Positions 1 to 7,603 of a stretch of DNA of 7,603 nt are shown here, piece by piece. This DNA is from a virus (Duplodnaviria > Heunggongvirae > Uroviricota > Caudoviricetes). Each line of letters starts with the position of its first letter. Position 1 is the first letter of the stretch. Position numbers and translations under genes: made by a program. The notes beneath the pieces are model-generated. The model saw nothing but the letters and a program-made list of their open reading frames with translations. It was not told the origin of the DNA and searched no databases. The DNA is taken from the IMG/VR virus record IMGVR_UViG_2663763286_000014, positions 1-7,603 of that record; one strand, given 5' to 3'.

Positions 1-327
1 TCATTTTTTCCAGAGGCGGTCGAACTCCGCCTTCGCAAAATAAGCGGAAGCCTGGCGAAGGATATCGTTACTGCGGCGCAGTTCACGATTTTCACGTTCC
101 AGCTCTTTCAGACGCTGACGTTCAGCGGTGGTGAGTCCACCATCACCACTCCCGGTATCCCGCTCATGCTGACGAACCCACACACGCAGAGTCTCTGGTG
201 TACAGCCAATCTTTGGGGCAATGGAACAAATTGCCGCCCATTGTGAGTCATATTCGCCCTGACTTTCCAGAACCATACGAACTGCCCGTTGACGGACCTC
301 GGGGGAAAAACGTGTATTTTTAGTCAT
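1..327 (-). CDS. IS3-family transposase OrfA (HTH DNA-binding subunit, 108 aa)
   Basis: Complete [25 protein letters not shown]...[36 protein letters not shown], with the N-terminal HTH and C-terminal leucine-zipper-like region typical of IS3-family OrfA (recognised as IS629/IS1203-type). SD AGAGG lies 8 nt upstream of the ATG at 327. The ORF ends WKK-stop over an A-rich run (GGAAAAAATGA) at the window edge. Confidence 0.9.
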
Positions 328-381
328 CCTGTTTACCTCTTTCTCAGGGAGTTTAGTCTCCAGGATTTCCGGGGCGGTTCA
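1..381 (-). mobile_element. Left end of an IS3-family insertion sequence (IS629/IS1203-like); the rest of the element lies beyond the window start
   Basis: Reverse complement of 328-381 reads TGAACCGCCCCGGAAATCCTGGAGACTAAACTCCCTGAGAAAGAGGTAAACAG, a typical IS3-family terminus (5'-TGA...) that matches the IS629 left end as I recall it, with about one difference. It is followed directly by an OrfA-type transposase gene. The element/host junction is at 381/382. Confidence 0.85.
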
Positions 382-806
382 GTACAACCAGCATGATCTT
401 CTATGAGCATCTTCAGCCACGAGTTCTCCTCCGCCAGCGTCACGCGACTGGCCTCCAGTTCTGCTACGCGCTGTTTTGCAGCATCCAGTTCAATCGACAA
501 TTTTTCCAACTGCTCTTTATGCTTTTTATATTCCTGATATGCGTGCCAAGACTGACCTTTGCGCACACTATCAGTGATATCAGCAACCTGCTCTGGTGTT
601 AGCGTGGTCAGTGGCTGTGCTGGGAAAATAAGCACTTTCCCGGAATCCCAATCAAAACCAGCATGAATTGACTGAACCTCAACTGAAGGTGTTGAACCAA
701 TGCTGCCAGGCGAATGAACAACGATCGTTACATCCATATCGCGACGATGGCTGTGGTTGTTGGACAAAATACGATTCACCAACTCAGAAAATTTGGAGAA
801 TTTCAT
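382..806 (-). pseudogene. Phage hypothetical protein (coiled-coil C-terminal part), 3' end truncated by the IS insertion
   Basis: ORF 333-806 starts at the ATG at 806 (SD TGAGG, 6-nt spacer) and reads without a stop across the IS junction at 381; the last ~16 codons ([16 protein letters not shown]) are IS-encoded. The native C-terminus is therefore missing. The native part (~141 aa) has a heptad-like stretch, KEQLEKLSIELDAAKQRVAELEASRVTLAEEN. Confidence 0.6.
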
Positions 807-814
807 GCGGAGCC

Positions 815-1225
815 TCAGTATGTAAAATAGACAGTTGCCACGCCGTTATAGTGATCAAACGATACGGCATTTACTTCGTAGCTGGCAGGGAGCTTCGATC
901 CGAGAACGTATCCGGGCCACGTTTTCCATGGAATTTCTCTGCGCTCACTATCGCCATATACCGTACATCCCAGAGAGCCTACAGCTTCATTAGAACGCGT
1001 GCCGCACGTTATGAATCCCAGATTTTGCTTACTGCTCTTAATGGTGATTGGGTGAACGCTGGCTGATGCATTAGCAGCACGCTGTGCCTGTTGGTTTGCG
1101 ATATTCGCAGAGTTCGCAGCAGCTACAGCAGCCGTAGTCGCGGCGGTAGAGGCTACAATAGCTGCTGAAGCATGCACTTGTTGGATATTCACCAACAATG
1201 CCGCGACAAAAATCATCTTCTTCAC
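815..1225 (-). CDS. Secreted/periplasmic protein with signal peptide and Ala-rich low-complexity linker (136 aa)
   Basis: N-terminus MKKMIFVAALLVNIQQVHA-SAA is a classic Sec signal peptide with an AxA cleavage site and no lipobox cysteine. It is followed by an Ala/Asn/Gln-rich linker, then a ~70-aa domain with two Cys. The start overlaps the upstream stop in an ATGA arrangement (1222-1225), indicating translational coupling. Confidence 0.7.
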   Translation of the reverse strand: MKKMIFVAALLVNIQQVHASAAIVASTAATTAAVAAANSANIANQQAQRAANASASVHPITIKSSKQNLGFITCGTRSNEAVGSLGCTVYGDSERREIPWKTWPGYVLGSKLPASYEVNAVSFDHYNGVATVYFTY

Positions 1226-1572
1226 TTGTCAGCTCCTTTGCGAATCTGTTCCGCCCATTCTTCAAGGGATTTCTCCGCATATTCACCGGACAGGCCATCA
1301 ATCGGGTACGGTTCATTAGCCAACTCTTCTTTCGCTGACAGAATCATGCGTGTAACGTCGAAAACTTCACGCAAAGACTTATTGATAAATCCGTGATTGA
1401 AAGCAGCAGCAAGACGGCTTGCGGTATAGTTAATACCCTCGTTGCGAGCCTCAGCACGTACTTCATCGAATTTACGCACCAGATACTCAGCATTTGTTTC
1501 ATTCACTTTCAGATCTCGCGGTACACATTTCCCGCGAAGAAACCCTTCCATTTCGAAAACATTCATGCGCAT
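1222..1572 (-). CDS. Hypothetical phage protein (116 aa; possibly YfdS-like)
   Basis: ORF MRMNVFEMEGFLRGKCVPRD...; charged, helical-looking sequence. The ATG at 1572 has GGAG 8 nt upstream; an alternative ATG at 1566 forms an ATGA overlap with the stop of the upstream HD-domain gene. Tightly packed within the leftward operon. Confidence 0.7.
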   Translation of the reverse strand: MRMNVFEMEGFLRGKCVPRDLKVNETNAEYLVRKFDEVRAEARNEGINYTASRLAAAFNHGFINKSLREVFDVTRMILSAKEELANEPYPIDGLSGEYAEKSLEEWAEQIRKGADK

Positions 1573-2099
1573 TTGCGTAACTCCGATAACTCGTTAAAAC
1601 GTTCCATAAACATCCCATAGGCATGGCCTGGCGACAGTGGAATAACTTTGAACATCTCTGTTGCCGGGATACCTTCCAGTACAGGCCAGAAAGAGCCATC
1701 ATCAAGCCCGAGATCGCGGCGTTCGGTTGCCAGCATAATGAGATCGGCATATTTCACTGGCGTGCTCATAACAGGAGGTAACCCGTATTTCTCACGGATT
1801 ACGGCGTCTATTTTTTCTTCCATCTGTTTATAGTCAGGAAGAAGGCGTTTCAGTGGCGCGGGGATGTCCTGACAATACGCTTCTGTTGCATCATGCATTA
1901 ACGCTTCAAAAGCAAACTCCTCCGGAACCAGTTTGCTGCAAAGCACCGCATGTTGGGCGACGCTGTAGAAGTGTGAAAGATGACCGGCAAAGCGACAGAT
2001 ATTTGAAAGGGAAACTGCGATATCGTTAATCACGATGTCGTCTTTATTTATCCTGTCATAATAAAAATGCTTCCCGGAAAAAGTTTTAATAAATGACAT
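1563..2099 (-). CDS. yfdR: HD-domain phosphohydrolase (YfdR-like 5'-deoxynucleotidase family, 178 aa)
   Basis: Contains H...H (HFYSVAQHAV) and HD (LMHDATEAY) metal-binding motifs characteristic of the HD superfamily. Start chosen at the internal ATG at 2099 (MSFIKTF...) because it has GGAG with a 6-nt spacer; the longer 199-aa extension to 2162 has no RBS. Length and neighbours (274-aa and 120-aa genes) match my memory of the CPS-53 yfdP-yfdQ-yfdR block; the symbol is from memory, not a search. Confidence 0.8.
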   Translation of the reverse strand: MSFIKTFSGKHFYYDRINKDDIVINDIAVSLSNICRFAGHLSHFYSVAQHAVLCSKLVPEEFAFEALMHDATEAYCQDIPAPLKRLLPDYKQMEEKIDAVIREKYGLPPVMSTPVKYADLIMLATERRDLGLDDGSFWPVLEGIPATEMFKVIPLSPGHAYGMFMERFNELSELRKCA

Positions 2100-2227
2100 T
2101 TTGTTCTCCACTTTATATGCGCTGCACCGCGCTGAATTTTGGTTAAAGAAAACCCTCGCCATCAGGCGATTATTGAGTTAATTACGTTTCCATAAATGCC
2201 CCCGCAGGGGCATTTGCAGTAATGAAA

Positions 2228-3052
2228 TCAGGCGGTGAAAGTACCAATAAAGGTTTCTACTTTGCTGTCTTTGAATTTCTCAACAAGCAGATCACGAAAT
2301 TCGTTAGCCATTTCTTCCTGCATCGCTTCCAGCTGAATAATGCGCAGAACCAGTACAGGACGATCGCCAGTGATAATGCTGAGGCGTAATTTAAACGGAC
2401 GTTCTTTCAGGCCTTCAAACGGAACGCATTTAAATTCAAATGCCACTGGCATAATGTCTTTGGTTTTCGCTTCGACAGACTCCATCAGAGAGCGTTTGCC
2501 GCTGAAGTCATTGTCTTCAAAATCAGCGGTCTGGTTTGCTTCAATTGTGATTTTACGGACTGCCGCAGCCGCTTTGGTTGCCTGAATGGTGTCACCATTA
2601 GCATCAAAGCCCACAAGGTAGTCGGCCCAGTCTTCAATCCATTCTGCCAGTGACTTCTGGGAGTTACGCTCGCCATTAACAGACAACAGAGCAGAAAACG
2701 GTGCTGTCTTTTTCAGTTTGAGGGTGGCGGTGTTATCTGCGTGACCTGGTTCATCAATAGTACCCAGGTTAAGCACACTGACGGCTCGCATATTATCGGC
2801 ATCGATAAAGCAGCGGGTGCCTTCATCTGCAAGATCTTTAGAATAACGGGTAAAGTCATCGATGCTGGCAGTGGAAAGCGCACCACGGAAACGGAAGCGA
2901 TTTAAATTAAATTTTTCCAGATCATGAATGCGGAAATTCTCAGGCAATGCCACAGCATCGGCACCAATCTTACTGATAATTTCATTAACACCCTGAGCAG
3001 AAATAAGGGCATGGATTTGATTAATTGCGGTTGCGTCTAAGTTCTGAGACAT
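2228..3052 (-). CDS. yfdQ: Hypothetical phage protein, YfdQ-like (DUF2303-type, 274 aa)
   Basis: Long uninterrupted ORF with protein-like composition. Strong SD (GTGAGGA, 6-nt spacer) before the ATG at 3052. Same length as K-12 YfdQ as I recall it, and sits next to the HD-domain gene; function unknown. Confidence 0.8.
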
Positions 3053-3117
3053 AATAAGTCCTCACTATATAAAGATATTCAGTGATGAGATAAATAATCA
3101 GTTAATTAAGAACGATA

Positions 3118-3480
3118 TTAATGACCTGCTGCGCGGAGTTTTCCGTCAGGTTCACCGGCAAGAGTCAGTAATTGTCCCTGGTCTTCCTGCAGAATAGTCA
3201 GGCGACCACCGCGATTGACATACATCGGTGTTTCGGTGGTGTCTTCTTCGGAAATTTTCCCGCGGTTAGTCGGGCGAACATATGAGAGTTTGTGTTTGAT
3301 TTTCACACGGTTCTCATCAAATGGTTCGATTTCCAGGTTGAGCGAGACCTTACCTTTGGTTTTCGTGTTCATCACACCGGAAGCGACTTCACTGAGAACA
3401 GCGCCGATTTTGGTTTCAAATACGCCGCCGTCCAGCTCCCCGATAAATGCCTGCACATCAGTACTGCGTTCGCTAGCCAT
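3118..3480 (-). CDS. Hypothetical phage protein, YfdP-like (120 aa)
   Basis: ORF MASERSTDVQAFIGELDGGVFETKIGAVLSEVASGVM... starts at the ATG at 3480 with strong SD GAGGAG (7-nt spacer). The ORF-track extension to 3798 (226 aa) upstream of this ATG looks like non-coding sequence (Arg/Cys/Leu-rich, GC-rich, no RBS). Confidence 0.8.
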   Translation of the reverse strand: MASERSTDVQAFIGELDGGVFETKIGAVLSEVASGVMNTKTKGKVSLNLEIEPFDENRVKIKHKLSYVRPTNRGKISEEDTTETPMYVNRGGRLTILQEDQGQLLTLAGEPDGKLRAAGH

Positions 3481-3917
3481 TTTGCTGCTCCTCATCATAT
3501 CGACCCTGCAAGGTCGGTTGGTTTCTCCACAAAACAGAGAAGAACACCTGCGGTGACAGCCGCCCGGATGGATTGGGTTATGAGCCCGTCGTCCGGTGAT
3601 GCTCTTCTCTGTTTTGTAAAAAGAGCGGTACCAGCCGGAAGCAAGGGTACAAACTGGTACCGCCAGGACTACACACAGCATAAAGTTGTGGTGCCGGGTG
3701 CCTCCCGGTGCCTGGCGAAGGTTGCACACCAGGCGGGTGGGTATCCACAGAAGGTCGACTGTCAGCCTCAACCTTAACCCGCGTGCGCTGAGCCGCATTC
3801 ACCACAACGCTAAGGATTCTCTCTGGTTGAAAATACTTAGCTGTTATGTGCCTGTCTTTTCACCACTTCAGGCTCGGTGGTATCCTTTTAAGCCCGTATA
3901 CATAAAAGGAAAATCAA
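3481..3917. other. GC-rich structured non-coding island (candidate regulatory RNA/processing region) between the yfdP-like gene and an 81-aa gene
   Basis: No protein-like ORF in any frame. Perfect 15-bp inverted repeat (3529-3543 ACAAAACAGAGAAGA / 3603-3617 TCTTCTCTGTTTTGT) enclosing ~59 nt. 10-bp GC-rich stem 3625-3634/3654-3663 built on three GGTAC(C) units. Tandem 10-mers CCGGGTGCCT/CCCGGTGCCT at 3694-3713. Confidence 0.35.
3611..3663 (-). terminator. Candidate intrinsic terminator for leftward transcription
   Basis: On the minus strand: stem GCGGUACCAG, 19-nt loop, CUGGUACCGC, followed immediately by UCUUUUUAC. The loop is long for a canonical terminator, and the palindromic GGTACC units allow alternative pairings. 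Confidence 0.3.
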
Positions 3918-4163
3918 ATGACTTTTGATGAAAAAGAACTTGATAATGCAATTAATAAAATCATCGTAACGTCGCTCTTTTCCTGTCTCAGCGACACTCA
4001 GCAGAAACAGTTCTACGAATCGGCTTTCAACATGATCGAGCGTTGTTGTTTCTGCGATGCCTACGAGTTACCTGAAAAAATCAGGAAACAGTTGGCTGAT
4101 GCTCTTCGAGTGCGACTTTCTGACCAATTTTCTGAAATGTGCTCTCCGAATTTGGACAAATAG
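3918..4163 (+). CDS. Small Cys-containing hypothetical protein (81 aa), rightward gene embedded in the leftward early region
   Basis: ATG at 3918 preceded by AAGGA (7-nt spacer). Protein-like helical composition with an ERCCFCDAYELPEK motif. More AT-rich than its surroundings. Overlaps the 3' end of the convergent minus-strand gene by 83 nt. Confidence 0.55.
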   Translation: MTFDEKELDNAINKIIVTSLFSCLSDTQQKQFYESAFNMIERCCFCDAYELPEKIRKQLADALRVRLSDQFSEMCSPNLDK

Positions 4164-4356
4164 AAAAAGGCCATTTCCATTCAGGGTCTGATGGAAATAC
4201 TTCAGCCTGTTCCAAAGCACGGCGTAAAGAGAACACAACTCCAGCCATAATCTGATGTTTCCCATTGGCCCAGCTATCGCCGCTCTGATCTACATGGGCG
4301 GCTATGTCGTATGACCAAACGACTTCACCACTATTGTTTAAAATCTGGACTTTCAT
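4081..4356 (-). CDS. Hypothetical protein, first gene downstream of the pL-like promoter (91 aa from ATG 4356; alternative ATG at 4377)
   Basis: ATG at 4356 has SD AGGTG with a 7-nt spacer; the upstream ATG at 4377 has no SD. Protein-like sequence MKVQILNNSGEVVWSYDIAAHVDQSGDSWANGKHQIMAG... Not Arg-rich, so not an obvious lambda-N-type antiterminator. Confidence 0.55.
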   Translation of the reverse strand: MKVQILNNSGEVVWSYDIAAHVDQSGDSWANGKHQIMAGVVFSLRRALEQAEVFPSDPEWKWPFSICPNSESTFQKIGQKVALEEHQPTVS

Positions 4357-4471
4357 TTCATACACCTGCTTTAACATGAGTGCCTAGTGGCACAACATGA
4401 CTCAACGAATCATCCTGGACTTCATATGCCCCAGGCGGCTACTTCGTGGGCGTCCTGCCTGTTCGTTACTG

Positions 4472-4523
4472 CAACATCTTTAAGTTGTAATCTAGTTGTT
4501 GTTTTGGTTGTTGTCAACAACTT
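4472..4523. promoter_or_regulatory. Left operator region (OL-like): two operator-like elements overlapping pL
   Basis: Element 1, CAACATCTTTAAGTTG (4472-4487), and element 2, TTGTCAACAACTT (4511-4523), each have a near-identical copy in the pR region (CAACATCTAAAAGTTG at 5450-5465; TTATCAACAACTT at 5498-5510). Both are built from inverted CAAC/GTTG half-sites. Confidence 0.5.
4489..4517 (-). promoter_or_regulatory. pL-like early leftward promoter (-35 TTGACA, 17-bp spacer, -10 TAGATT)
   Basis: On the minus strand, the perfect -35 hexamer TTGACA (4517..4512) and TAGATT (4494..4489) are separated by 17 bp. Overlaps the operator-like elements shared with the pR region. Confidence 0.6.
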
Positions 4524-4579
4524 TATGTGGTTTTGACGGATGTGAAATGAGGGCAAGGGTTATCAAAAAAGGAGGTTGT

Positions 4580-4684
4580 ATGGACGATGCGCTTTTAATT
4601 ACACAATGGACACTTTCCTTCCGTGATTGGAAACTCTCAAATCACGGGAGGAAGATTGAAAAGGCGGGTAATAATGGTAACTAA
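4580..4684 (+). CDS. Possible small ORF (34 aa) with strong SD, convergent with the repressor gene; uncertain
   Basis: AGGAGGT at 4570-4576 then ATG at 4580 (short 3-4 nt spacer). Peptide MDDALLITQWTLSFRDWKLSNHGRKIEKAGNNGN. The ORF encloses a 14-bp hairpin (4615-4628/4640-4653). Could instead be a non-coding structured element. Confidence 0.25.
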   Translation: MDDALLITQWTLSFRDWKLSNHGRKIEKAGNNGN

Positions 4685-4711
4685 ATTTCTGAAGGAATGT
4701 TTTTTGATGCA

Positions 4712-5398
4712 TTACCAAGTGCGCGATGACCAGAATACTCTACCTATAACGTGAATTCTGGAACGCCTATCTTCGAAGGTGAGTATTTCATCTGGATACT
4801 CATCTTTATTGAAACTTCTTAGAATCAGACCACCGTCAGGTAAATTGATCAATATTTTAACTCTAAGTAATACGCCATCACGTATAGCATAAAGATCCCC
4901 ATCACGAATAGGAACTGTTTGGGAAACATCAACAGCAACAAAATCTCCATTGTTAAGTACAGGTAGTAAACTATTACCCCAAATTTTTACGATCTTTGCA
5001 TTGGAGACACATACACCAGCTTTTCTTAAATCAATCCTTCTTAGCGGGAACCAGTCTACAGTTGATTCAACTATTTCAGCCAAACATCCATTACCCGCTG
5101 ATAACTCGACATCTAGGACAGGAATGTTTGCAAAAATGTCAGGATCTAATGTTGTACTTTCAGCCTCCTTTACAACAAGGTCTGGGAAAGACGCGTTATC
5201 CTCAATGCCCAATTGCAACCACTTTTGAGAAACCCCTAACACTTTAGCAATCTCTTTAATTTTCCGAGGCTGTTGAGTTTCTCCATTCTCGATTTTTGCT
5301 ACGGATTGTTGTGAAAGCCCAATTTTTTCAGCTAGTTGCGCCTGACTCATTCCTGCTTTTTCTCTTTCGCTTTTTAGTCTTTCTGCCAATGTTTTCAC
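4712..5398 (-). CDS. CI-like prophage repressor: N-terminal HTH (XRE family) plus C-terminal S24 LexA-like autopeptidase (228 aa)
   Basis: HTH region MSQAQLAEKIGLSQQSVAKIENGE. Putative Ala-Gly cleavage site (LSAGNG). Ser nucleophile in GNSLLP and Lys in LLRVKIL, as in LexA/lambda CI. GTG start at 5398 with SD GAGGGGG (7-nt spacer). Divergent from the cro-like gene. Confidence 0.92.
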   Translation of the reverse strand: MKTLAERLKSEREKAGMSQAQLAEKIGLSQQSVAKIENGETQQPRKIKEIAKVLGVSQKWLQLGIEDNASFPDLVVKEAESTTLDPDIFANIPVLDVELSAGNGCLAEIVESTVDWFPLRRIDLRKAGVCVSNAKIVKIWGNSLLPVLNNGDFVAVDVSQTVPIRDGDLYAIRDGVLLRVKILINLPDGGLILRSFNKDEYPDEILTFEDRRSRIHVIGRVFWSSRTW

Positions 5399-5449
5399 AA
5401 CATATCCCCCTCGTTTTTATTGAGGTTACAACTTTATGTTTTAGCTTTC

Positions 5450-5510
5450 CAACATCTAAAAGTTGTGATAAAAGTTGTTGTAGTTGTATAATCGAAGTTA
5501 TCAACAACTT
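5450..5510. promoter_or_regulatory. Right operator region (OR-like) between the repressor and cro-like genes
   Basis: Copies of both operator-like elements (CAACATCTAAAAGTTG at 5450-5465 and TTATCAACAACTT at 5498-5510) flank and overlap the pR -35/-10; additional AAGTTGT/ACAACTT half-sites at 5426-5436 and 5471-5486. Confidence 0.5.
5463..5492 (+). promoter_or_regulatory. pR-like early rightward promoter (-35 TTGTGA, 18-bp spacer, -10 TATAAT)
   Basis: Perfect -10 TATAAT at 5487-5492 and -35 TTGTGA at 5463-5468, about 45 bp upstream of the cro-like start; SD AGGAG at 5524-5528. Confidence 0.6.
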
Positions 5511-5535
5511 TACTACTTACAGATAGGAGAAAGCT

Positions 5536-5784
5536 ATGACACCTGAGCAATTAGCCTTATCAGAGGCAATCGCTCTGGCTGGTGGTCAATCAGAATTGGC
5601 TCGGAAGCTCACAGCCAGCAGTGGTCGTTTAGTAAAGCAACAACATGTCTGGAACTGGTTGAACAGAGAAAAGCGTCCCCCTGCAAAGCTCTCGATATTC
5701 ATTGAAATGACCACTGGCGTATCAAAAGAAAAATTACGTCCAGATATTTTTCAAAAGATTAAAGACTTATCAGATGGAAAGTAA
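5536..5784 (+). CDS. Cro-like/YdaS-family HTH regulator (82 aa)
   Basis: ATG at 5536 with AGGAG 7 nt upstream. Small HTH protein (GGQSELARKLTASSGRLVKQQHVWNW). First gene of the rightward operon, divergent from the CI-like repressor. Confidence 0.85.
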   Translation: MTPEQLALSEAIALAGGQSELARKLTASSGRLVKQQHVWNWLNREKRPPAKLSIFIEMTTGVSKEKLRPDIFQKIKDLSDGK

Positions 5785-5806
5785 CCACAGTTTTAAGGAG
5801 ATAGCC

Positions 5807-6358
5807 GTGGGTAAGCATCACTGGAAAGTAGAAAAACAGCCTGAGTGGTACGTGAAAGCTGTCAGAAAAACTATCGCGGCGTTGCCGGGTGGTTACGCTG
5901 AAGCAGCTGAGTGGCTGGATGTAACAGAGAACGCTTTATTCAACCGCCTTCGTGCCGATGGTGATCAGTTTTTTCCGTTGGGATGGGCAATGGTTTTACA
6001 GCGTGCGGCTAGTACACATTACATTGCGGATGCTGTCGCACAGTCTGCTGGTGGGGTGTTTGTATCACTTCCTGAAATTGAGGAAGTAGAGAACGCTGAT
6101 ATCAACCAACGTCTACTGGAAGTCATTGAACAGATCGGGAGTTACTCAAAGCAGATTCGTTCGGCAATCGAAGATGGGGTAGTGGAGCCACATGAACAGA
6201 CAGCAATTAATGATGAGTTGTATCTGTCAATTTCGAAGCTCCAGGAGCATGCAGCACTGTTCTACAAAATCTTCTGCGCTTCAGAAAAGAGTGACGCCCG
6301 CGAGTGTGCAGCTCCGGGCGTCGTGGCGTTTTGTGTCCGTGGAGAAACTAACGCATGA
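5807..6358 (+). CDS. CII-like phage regulatory protein (CP76/YmfL-like); 183 aa from GTG 5807, or 194 aa if started at ATG 5774
   Basis: GTG at 5807 has a strong SD AAGGAG (6-nt spacer); the ATG at 5774 lies inside the cro-like gene's 3' end and has no SD. The stop TGA (6356-6358) overlaps the next gene's ATG (6355-6357), an ATGA coupling. Confidence 0.8.
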
Positions 6359-6693
6359 ACAGTTTAACAACACTCTACCGTCGTTCGCAACTGATTGCGC
6401 TTCCTGTACCGGGTGGAAAAGCGAAGGTGGAGTATTGCTATGCAGTGAATGTACCAGGTGACAGGGAAATTGTAACCCACAGCTTTGCAGAGTGGGCTGT
6501 GGGTGATTTCAACCGGCAGAAGGAGACAGTCCTTTGCGACAAGTTAACCGCTGGTTCAAAGATCACTACGGAGTGCCCGTCAGAGTCATTCGTTGGGAGC
6601 CGGAAACACAACGGGTTATCTACCTCCGTGAAGGCTATGAACATGAATGCTTCAGTCCGCTCGAACAGTTTCGTCGTAAATTCAGGGAAATAG
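6355..6693 (+). CDS. ymfM: YmfM-like protein (112 aa); e14 YmfM has been reported as an SOS-inducible cell-division inhibitor
   Basis: ATGA-coupled to the upstream gene and ends 9 nt before the O-like gene's RBS; length matches e14 YmfM as I recall it (112 aa). The N-terminal half is protein-like; the C-terminal half is Ser/Asn-rich low complexity and is overlapped by an alternative-frame ORF. Symbol from memory and context, tentative. Confidence 0.6.
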
Positions 6694-6702
6694 AGGTCGG
6701 TC

Positions 6703-7603
6703 ATGAGCCTGTTAATGACATCCCAGCCCATTGTGATAAATCGTGATCTTGCATGCCGTATTGGTCTGAATGAGGCAATTGTGTTGCAGCAGCTTCATTA
6801 CTGGCTGAATGAAACGAATTCAGGCACTGAGCATGGCGGAATTCGCTGGGTTTATAACACGACAGAACAGTGGCTGGAGCAGTTTCCGTTCTGGTCAGAG
6901 TCCACTCTGAAACGCACATTTGCAAGCCTGAAATCACTTGGGGTTTTGCGTCGCGAGCAACTCAATAAATCGAAGCGTGACATGACCAATTTCTACACGA
7001 TCAACTATGAAAGTGAGCTTTTAGAAGAGGTCAAAGTGAACGAATCCATCAGGTCAAAATGCACTTCTCCATCGGGTCAAAGTGACCTGATGGATGGGCG
7101 CAAAATGACACGATCCATTGGTTCAAAACGACACGCTGTCATCGGGTCAAAATGGCCCAATGATCTTACAGAGAATACAACAGAGATTACTACAGAGAAT
7201 AAAACCTCTTCTCGTCCGGACGCTTCGCAACCGGACACGCAAACGGCTGAACAGGAGTTTTTAACTCGCCATCCTGATGCGGTTGTATTCAGCCCTAAAA
7301 AGCGCCAGTGGGGAACGCAGGATGATTTGACCTGCGCACAGTGGCTCTGGAAAAAAATCATCGCCCTGTACGAGCAGGCCGCCGAATGTGACGGCGAGGT
7401 GGTTCGTCCCAAAGAACCGAACTGGACAGCCTGGGCAAACGAAATTCGCCTGATGTGTGTGCAGGATGGTCGTACCCACAAACAAATCTGCGAGATGTAC
7501 AGCCGCGTCAGCCGCGATCCGTTCTGGTGCCGTAACGTGCTCAGCCCGTCGAAGTTGCGGGAAAAATGGGATGAGCTTTCCCTGCGCTTATCGCCGTCCG
7601 TCA
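6703..7603 (+). CDS. Lambda-O-like replication initiation protein (replisome organiser), 5' partial; runs off the window end
   Basis: ATG at 6703 with GAGG 6 nt upstream; open frame to 7603 with no stop (checked codon by codon). N-terminal domain MSLLMTSQPIVINRDLACRIGLNEAIVLQQLHYWLNETNSG...WSESTLKRTFASLKSLGVLRREQ is typical of phage replication-initiator N-terminal domains. Origin iterons and an AT-rich tract are embedded in the linker, as in lambda O. Confidence 0.85.
   Translation, partial: MSLLMTSQPIVINRDLACRIGLNEAIVLQQLHYWLNETNSGTEHGGIRWVYNTTEQWLEQFPFWSESTLKRTFASLKSLGVLRREQLNKSKRDMTNFYTINYESELLEEVKVNESIRSKCTSPSGQSDLMDGRKMTRSIGSKRHAVIGSKWPNDLTENTTEITTENKTSSRPDASQPDTQTAEQEFLTRHPDAVVFSPKKRQWGTQDDLTCAQWLWKKIIALYEQAAECDGEVVRPKEPNWTAWANEIRLMCVQDGRTHKQICEMYSRVSRDPFWCRNVLSPSKLREKWDELSLRLSPSV
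7028..7158 (+). repeat. Replication-origin iterons (4-5 copies, core GGTCAAARTG) inside the O-like gene
   Basis: TCCATCAGGTCAAAATGCAC (7045-7064), TCCATCGGGTCAAAGTGACC (7068-7087), TCCATTGGTTCAAAACGACAC (7114-7134), GTCATCGGGTCAAAATGGCCC (7138-7158), plus a partial copy AGAGGTCAAAGTGAACG at 7027-7043. Followed by an AT-rich tract with ACAGAGAAT/ACAGAGATT repeats (7162-7205). Confidence 0.6.

Follow-up and report, generated by a model that had tools for sequence, protein, structure and literature searches.

The stretch of DNA analyzed here, which we call the window, comprises the 7,603 nucleotides (nt) at positions 1 to 7,603 of the virus record IMGVR_UViG_2663763286_000014 and carries the immunity and early-right region of an e14-like lambdoid prophage. 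Between the CII-like regulator gene ymfL and a replication gene lies ymfM, read in frame 1, and inside its 3' half a second open reading frame (ORF) begins on the same strand in frame 3 (Table 1). This second frame had been pointed out in an earlier note, made from the sequence alone. The coordinates given there for the frame-1 ORF, the frame-3 stop codon, the AGGAG motif, the TTG start and the end of the second frame are all right, and the frame-3 peptide of 70 amino acids (aa) was quoted exactly. We read positions 6355-6746 as two same-strand protein-coding genes, ymfM and a gene for a DUF4222 protein, which share 160 nt in different frames, with the ymfM tail held open by selection; we put the probability of this reading at roughly 75%.

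Table 1. Features of the window, with those of the ymfM/DUF4222 locus listed first. SD, Shine-Dalgarno sequence.
Feature	Positions	Strand	Details
Full ymfM ORF, 112 aa, frame 1	6355-6693	+	ATG 6355 to TAG 6691-6693
ymfM translation start	6341-6357	+	GGAG 6341-6344, 10-nt spacer, ATG 6355-6357
ymfM N-terminal domain, codons 1-57	6355-6525	+	amino-acid constraint
Frame-3 stop TGA, closing frame 3 upstream of the DUF4222 start	6504-6506	+	
DUF4222 translation start	6521-6536	+	SD AGGAG 6521-6525, 8-nt spacer, TTG 6534-6536
DUF4222 gene, 70 aa, frame 3	6534-6746	+	Pfam PF13973, homologues, pN/pS
Dual-coding overlap, 160 nt	6534-6693	+	ymfM codons 61-112 are the +1 frame of DUF4222 codons 1-53
ymfM stop within the replication-gene SD	6691-6705	+	TAG 6691-6693, SD GAGG 6693-6696; stop 9 nt before ATG 6703-6705
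ymfL, CII-like regulator	5774-6358	+	Pfam Phage_CP76 E=4.7e-14; NCBIfam phage_reg_YmfL 168.8 bits
Replication gene (O-like / primosomal)	6703-7603	+	ATG 6703-6705; continues past the window end
89-aa frame-3 ORF across the ymfL/ymfM junction	6192-6461	+	
YdaS/Cro-like gene	5536-5784		
CI/LexA-like repressor, S24-peptidase	4712-5398	-	
226-aa ORF	3118-3798	-	no Pfam match
DUF2303 protein, early-left	2228-3052	-	E=8e-92
Weak YfbR-like HD-domain match, early-left	1563-2162	-	25.2 bits, below the 25.9-bit cut-off
IS3-family transposase OrfA-type helix-turn-helix protein	1-327	-	Pfam HTH_Tnp_1 E=1.4e-12

The frame-3 product matches Pfam family PF13973 (DUF4222) with 66.5 bits (E=1.5e-18; gathering cut-off 27 bits), and its residues 2-53 align to profile positions 3-52 of 53. 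It also matches phrog_1343 (E=5.4e-34) and carries the family residues R6, D10, G13, V16, I29, R32, G34, Y35, C39, P42, F46 and F50, so that it is a full-length member with no difference at the family level. We found 145 homologues; those of 59-70 aa occur in Escherichia, Salmonella, Citrobacter, Klebsiella, Enterobacter, Kosakonia and other genera, and a profile search for distant members yielded 81 cluster representatives. Upstream of the TTG at 6534, no other start codon is present within 6507-6533. At the aligned codon of 66 unique genes the start is ATG in 36, TTG in 26 and GTG in 4, and an SD-like purine run precedes it in each of them. Comparison between 19 clusters of sequences gives the DUF4222 frame a median ratio of nonsynonymous to synonymous differences (pN/pS) of 0.21, with saturation at the synonymous sites (pS 0.73); the differences fall on the three codon positions as 1749:1686:4570. 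AlphaFold2 models the protein with a predicted local distance difference test (pLDDT) score of 78 overall and 87-90 in the core, and predicts a small, compact SH3/Tudor-like beta-barrel. The frame-3 ORF is a genuine DUF4222 gene, equipped in all relatives with a separate SD and start codon, and its substitution pattern indicates strong purifying selection.

The opposite view, in which frame 3 is spurious and only the annotated YmfM is real, has a negligible probability. The curated K-12 record and four phage records annotate frame 1 only, and the E. coli gene begins with the weak TTG, but the Pfam score is far above threshold, the purifying selection in the overlap sits in frame 3, the fold is predicted with confidence, and DUF4222 also stands alone as a gene elsewhere. 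The Pfam match and the frame-3 purifying selection refute it.

Two alleles of the DUF4222 C terminus exist, one of 59 aa (...GHEH) and one of 70 aa (...PVNDIPAHCDKS), and the replication gene that follows differs between them. The window ceases to resemble K-12-type prophages at about 6708, just past the replication-gene ATG, and therefore a mosaic junction lies inside the DUF4222 3' end. In the window the DUF4222 ORF ends with TGA at 6744-6746, 44 nt inside the replication gene, and these first 44 nt of the replication gene form a second dual-coding stretch. In one relative (L232) a nonsense codon cuts DUF4222 off after residue 6, a natural, single-copy knock-out of frame 3.

The frame-1 gene is the same gene as K-12 e14 ymfM (b1148). 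The two share their length and their position between ymfL and the replication gene, with 97% amino-acid and 97.9% nucleotide identity, although the window carries a different allele, with the 70-aa instead of the 59-aa DUF4222 and a different replication gene. The window allele is closest to FDAARGOS_1058 and phage mEp460. YmfM matches phrog_1170 over residues 1-112 (E=8.7e-69), its N-terminal domain matches phrog_20047 as well as phrog_1170, and the junction GGAGAAACTAACGCATGAAC at the ymfM start recurs in relatives. Over codons 1-52 pN/pS is 0.17-0.58 in frame 1 and about 1 in the remaining two frames, and third positions account for half of the differences in the N-terminal domain (556:578:1081 by codon position). 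The domain family is diverse, with N-terminal types A-D that each carry the pattern MNSL...Q.R..P..G...F.Y. AlphaFold2 gives pLDDT values of 70-80 for residues ~10-66 and values below 50 for residues 68-112, and it places a helix at 54-66 that extends a few residues into the overlap. The first ~57-66 residues of YmfM are thus modeled as a small folded domain, and behind it comes an extension of ~50 residues that is Ser/Thr-rich and probably disordered. The earlier note had called the N-terminal half of frame 1 protein-like and its C-terminal half low in complexity, and both the pLDDT split and the restriction of codon constraint to the first ~57 codons bear this out. By its pattern of substitution, frame 1 is a bona fide gene of which only the first half evolves like an ordinary protein.

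Within the overlap, pN/pS in the ymfM frame is 1.44 and cannot be distinguished from the 1.53 of the non-coding +2 frame. The ~53 C-terminal codons of ymfM are free of amino-acid constraint and are the +1 reading of DUF4222. Alignment across relatives, which the earlier note had proposed as a check on the synonymous pattern, places purifying selection in the overlap in frame 3, with frame 1 constrained only against stops. This is the reverse of the pattern named there as a refutation, a decaying frame 3 with frame 1 under purifying selection throughout. The note had left a choice between an over-extended frame 1 and a genuine overlap. The comparative data support the overlap, whereas over-extension cannot apply to the C terminus because ribosomes starting at 6355 must read to 6693. 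Each frame of the pair has its own plausible initiation site, conserved in relatives, and each shows a signature of selection in the overlap, DUF4222 on amino acids and ymfM on the exclusion of stop codons.

That exclusion is seen throughout the collected relatives. In a first set of related sequences the +1 frame is open in 110 of 111 unique sequences, from 57-80 codons upstream to 52-57 codons downstream of the DUF4222 start, which yields ORFs of 108-117 aa, whereas the +2 frame is closed after 1-37 codons. A second set of 72 unique sequences gives the same picture, save for the distant loci L196-L198, among which only L198 has the long overlapping ORF. To obtain the chance of openness, the synonymous codons of DUF4222 were resampled with local codon usage. 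By this measure a single sequence would have an open +1 frame with a probability of 1.5-13%, and all 15 of the 15 clusters (<85% nucleotide identity) are open. As an empirical baseline, 12.6% of 52-codon windows are open in 663 neighboring long ORFs.

The choice of synonymous codons follows the same line. Among 19 cluster representatives, the Val and Leu codons of DUF4222 that stand before an A-initial codon end in a pyrimidine in 57 cases and in a purine in none, while before C or T the two classes are equal (17 and 17; Fisher p=2e-9 between the contexts). Before an A-initial codon these codons alternate between T- and C-ending forms and are almost never G- or A-ending; before C or T, GTG and CTG are common. 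The one copy with a truncated ymfM frame, L043 (IMGVR_UViG_2563366891_000011), holds the sole GTA in such a context; it lies at DUF4222 codon 4, where it is silent, and makes a TAA at ymfM codon 64. In L282, L283 and L288, where ymfM does not read through into DUF4222, the +1 frame contains internal stops, five of them in the DUF4222 gene of L282.

These observations bear on the view that the run-on of 53 codons is a neutral accident in which a stop has not yet been gained, so that only DUF4222 and a short ymfM N-terminal domain matter. Such an accident would fit the lack of amino-acid constraint on the tail, the existence of short ymfM forms, and single natural truncating variants such as the GTA of L043. 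Yet all 15-19 clusters are open, at 1.5-13% each, over a gene whose synonymous sites are saturated; stop-making synonymous codons are avoided only where they would close frame 1, and stops do occur where ymfM does not read through. We consider a neutral run-on improbable. The pattern indicates instead that the ymfM frame across DUF4222 is kept open by selection.

What the open frame may be kept for is suggested by the two ends of ymfM. At its start, the ymfL TGA (6356-6358) overlaps the ymfM ATG as ATGA (6355-6358). At its end, nearly all lineages share the arrangement TAGAGG/TAAAGG - ATG, in which 9 nt separate the stop from the ATG, and a conserved rare codon of DUF4222 (ATA, TTA or CTA at codon 56 in 62 of 66 unique genes) makes this combined stop and SD. 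At both junctions the upstream stop lies at or overlaps the downstream SD or start, which is the geometry of termination-reinitiation, and it is conserved. In tandem relatives it is DUF4222 itself that ends beside the replication-gene ATG, in L197 with the same 9-nt spacing; for L283 an ATGA overlap of DUF4222 and the replication gene, not precisely traced, is suggested.

The comparative data show that both frames are coding, that selection maintains the open frame and that the arrangement of stop and SD is conserved. The sequence of the overlap is set by DUF4222, and the ymfM extension is its +1 shadow, purged of stops by selection. In the mechanism that we propose, DUF4222 would initiate independently from AGGAG-N8-TTG. 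Ribosomes starting at ymfM, coupled to ymfL through ATGA, would always cross DUF4222 and would end at the TAG inside the replication-gene SD, 9 nt before the ATG. The extension may then be kept open for translational coupling, in a relay from ymfL through ymfM to the replication gene with DUF4222 nested inside, a purpose that we infer at somewhat short of even odds.

The main alternative to a coupling relay is a soluble disordered tail. On this view YmfM itself requires the long soluble tail, whether for stability, for spacing or for an avidity-type interaction, and this requirement, not the delivery of ribosomes, would keep the extension open. Across the 19 representatives the tail exceeds open synonymous resamples in Ser/Thr content (mean z +1.7) and falls below them in hydrophobicity (mean z -1.4), residues 68-112 are modeled as disordered beyond a helix that reaches into the overlap, and ymfM length is tightly conserved at 108-117 aa. 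Natural members of the family, however, do without the tail. Forms of 60-62 aa end at the DUF4222 start in L197 and L283; a 73-aa form in L282 (region L282:1501-2606) is separated from DUF4222 by an inserted KilA-N/ANT antirepressor-type gene; and a 78-aa form in Entomohabitans (L011), without a DUF4222 overlap, abuts the replication gene. The pN/pS of 1.44, as in the non-coding +2 frame, also speaks against it, and the composition signal is confounded by the third-position C preference of DUF4222. We regard a required tail as unlikely, though well ahead of a neutral run-on.

Several points weigh against two genes with a selected open frame and against the relay. The DUF4222 genes of L196 and L197 have no read-through and are still +1-open (P=0.015 and 0.14), and therefore openness is not perfectly tied to architecture; the association is strong, not absolute. 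These two genes (L196:109-291 and L197:1501-1680) are distant members not overlapped by a ymfM-type ORF, and their open frame could be left over from an overlap since lost or could point to some other constraint on it. The clusters share common descent and are treated as independent on the strength of their saturated synonymous divergence. A preference of DUF4222 for C-ending codons, and not selection on the tail, could account for the biased tail composition. DUF4222 translation ends 11-44 nt past the replication-gene ATG, or as ATGA in some lineages; DUF4222 could therefore deliver ribosomes itself, which weakens the rationale for coupling through ymfM. Finally, the reported expression evidence for either frame is transcript induction only.

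Frame 3 is reached from frame 1 by a shift of -1, and a programmed frameshift could join the YmfM N-terminal domain to DUF4222 in one protein. Database proteins P0062, P0065, P0030 and P0054 (102-119 aa) are exactly such fusions. They come from single contigs in read-archive (Logan) or ENA assemblies, however, and the junction differs in each. Direct reading of the sequence finds no X_XXY_YYZ slippery heptamer in 6507-6535, as had been noted before. In relatives the frame-3 stop lies 0-39 codons before the DUF4222 start, and in L027, L021 and L007 it lies 0-1 codon before it, which leaves no room to shift; DUF4222 also has its own SD and an ATG, GTG or TTG at the same aligned codon everywhere. 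The absent slippery site and the frame-3 stops abutting the DUF4222 start rule out a frameshift fusion for practical purposes, and we give it only a very slight chance. Taken together, the Logan, ENA and JGI assemblies hold fusions of 102-123 aa (P0062, P0065, P0030, P0054, P0150 and P0165), which are probably indels or assembly errors.

Genes embedded out of frame on the same strand are classic in phages, as in lambda Rz/Rz1 and phiX174. The ymfM/DUF4222 pair is like them in that nearly all of a small gene, which has a separate SD and start codon, is enclosed by another gene and both are maintained. In Rz/Rz1, both products are sequence-constrained and act jointly in lysis, whereas only DUF4222 is constrained in the present overlap, and, unlike in Rz/Rz1, the inner gene extends beyond the stop of the outer one into the next gene. 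Translational coupling through ATGA or stop-in-SD junctions is known from the trp and ribosomal-protein operons and from MS2. The ATGA of ymfL and ymfM, the ymfM stop in the replication-gene SD and the same geometry at the DUF4222 stop of tandem relatives would resemble such relays; unlike in the known ones, the candidate relay ORF must cross a whole independent gene in another frame. Overprinting, or C-terminal extension by loss of a stop codon, is an origin of new viral coding sequence. The ymfM tail is like a young overprinted frame over an older folded gene in being biased in composition, predicted to be disordered, unconstrained and absent in some members, but the extension has already spread over several enterobacterial genera.

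The locus is matched in 2,626 of 5,426 complete E. coli genomes, with the match covering 80% or more of the query in 2,001 of these, and it is also present in live phages, including SfII, SfIV, mEp460 and Klebsiella phages. An alignment of distant DUF4222 members (A5) was too divergent for locus searching; a locus scan with P0222 found nothing, and one with P0223 mostly returned the same long-overlap subfamily. Each annotated record that we inspected lacks one gene of the pair, and which one varies by pipeline. The E. coli genomes inspected from RefSeq, annotated by the Prokaryotic Genome Annotation Pipeline (PGAP), carry only a "DUF4222 domain-containing protein" (WP_001250270.1); ymfM is dropped, and 176 nt after ymfL are left empty. 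The curated K-12 record has only "cell division inhibitor YmfM", and the GenBank records of phages Kati, mEp460, SfII and LLS have only the frame-1 ORF. The statement in the earlier note that the frame-3 gene is unannotated holds for K-12 and these four phages but not for the PGAP genomes. PHROGs lists ymfM and DUF4222 as unrelated families, and NCBIfam has no model for either protein. Among the papers within reach of our literature search, none links DUF4222 with ymfM or describes the near-constant overlap. The pair has been overlooked because each annotation pipeline keeps one member.

Elsewhere in the window, a pR-like site at 5463-5492 is the sole promoter-like site. No internal promoter or terminator exceeded shuffle expectation, and no Rfam match at E<=1 was found within 5400-7603. 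Phage records label the position of the replication gene as "primosomal protein" or "DNA replication protein O", and Phg_2220_C is found there in relatives. At the left edge of the window, the IS3-family OrfA-type gene adjoins the early-left genes of the prophage. The 226-aa ORF has a Cys/Arg-rich N-terminal part of ~110 residues that does not look like protein and a C-terminal half like that of a normal phage protein; its start is probably over-called. Two further ORFs at the locus were considered as genes and rejected. The translation of the 89-aa ORF across the ymfL/ymfM junction looks conserved in relatives (a 12-residue stretch), but from 6355 on, where it was tested, the ORF has a pN/pS of ~1 and no sign of coding; coding constraint on ymfL and ymfM probably accounts for its conserved look. 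An antisense ORF of 97 aa (6438-6731) is open in relatives, yet the chance of openness is 0.30, which is unremarkable because only the TTA, CTA and TCA codons of DUF4222 close that frame, and its Leu and Ser residues are few.

The identity of the division inhibitor SfiC has been sought since 1983. In K-12 the ymfM gene spans 1203822-1204160, and the DUF4222 gene runs from a TTG at 1204001 to 1204180. The report of YmfM as a division inhibitor that the earlier note mentioned is a preprint by Ansari et al. (bioRxiv 10.1101/2020.11.19.390815), whose constructs leave the two frames together. The ymfM "open reading frame" was cloned in pBAD24 and a ymfM deletion was used, and expression of the K-12 ymfM segment was reported to inhibit FtsZ-ring formation and to cause filamentation. 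The span of the pBAD-ymfM clone holds the DUF4222 SD and 53 of the 59 DUF4222 codons, enough to include the complete Pfam domain. A deletion of most of the ORF, as in a Keio-type design, would take the DUF4222 start with it. With the DUF4222 domain present in the clone and both genes affected by such a deletion, these experiments cannot assign SfiC to one protein. Judged from these coordinates, the published SfiC activity maps to a DNA segment that encodes both proteins and not to one reading frame. A bolder proposal, which we offer tentatively and think rather doubtful, is that SfiC activity comes wholly or jointly from the DUF4222 beta-barrel, and that the C-terminal half of ymfM is a sequence-free overprinted extension kept open only for the handover of ribosomes to the replication gene.

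The K-12 reference names ymfM "cell division inhibitor YmfM", and the gene is also used as a tool for making filaments; a dual-coding locus weakens the assignment of this named E. coli division inhibitor to a particular protein. What is new in comparison with the classic nested genes of phages is that one partner is constrained only to stay open. The locus offers a clean natural case of an overlapped frame selected for openness and not for sequence, and standard screens for overlapping genes based on dN/dS would miss frames that are constrained in this way.

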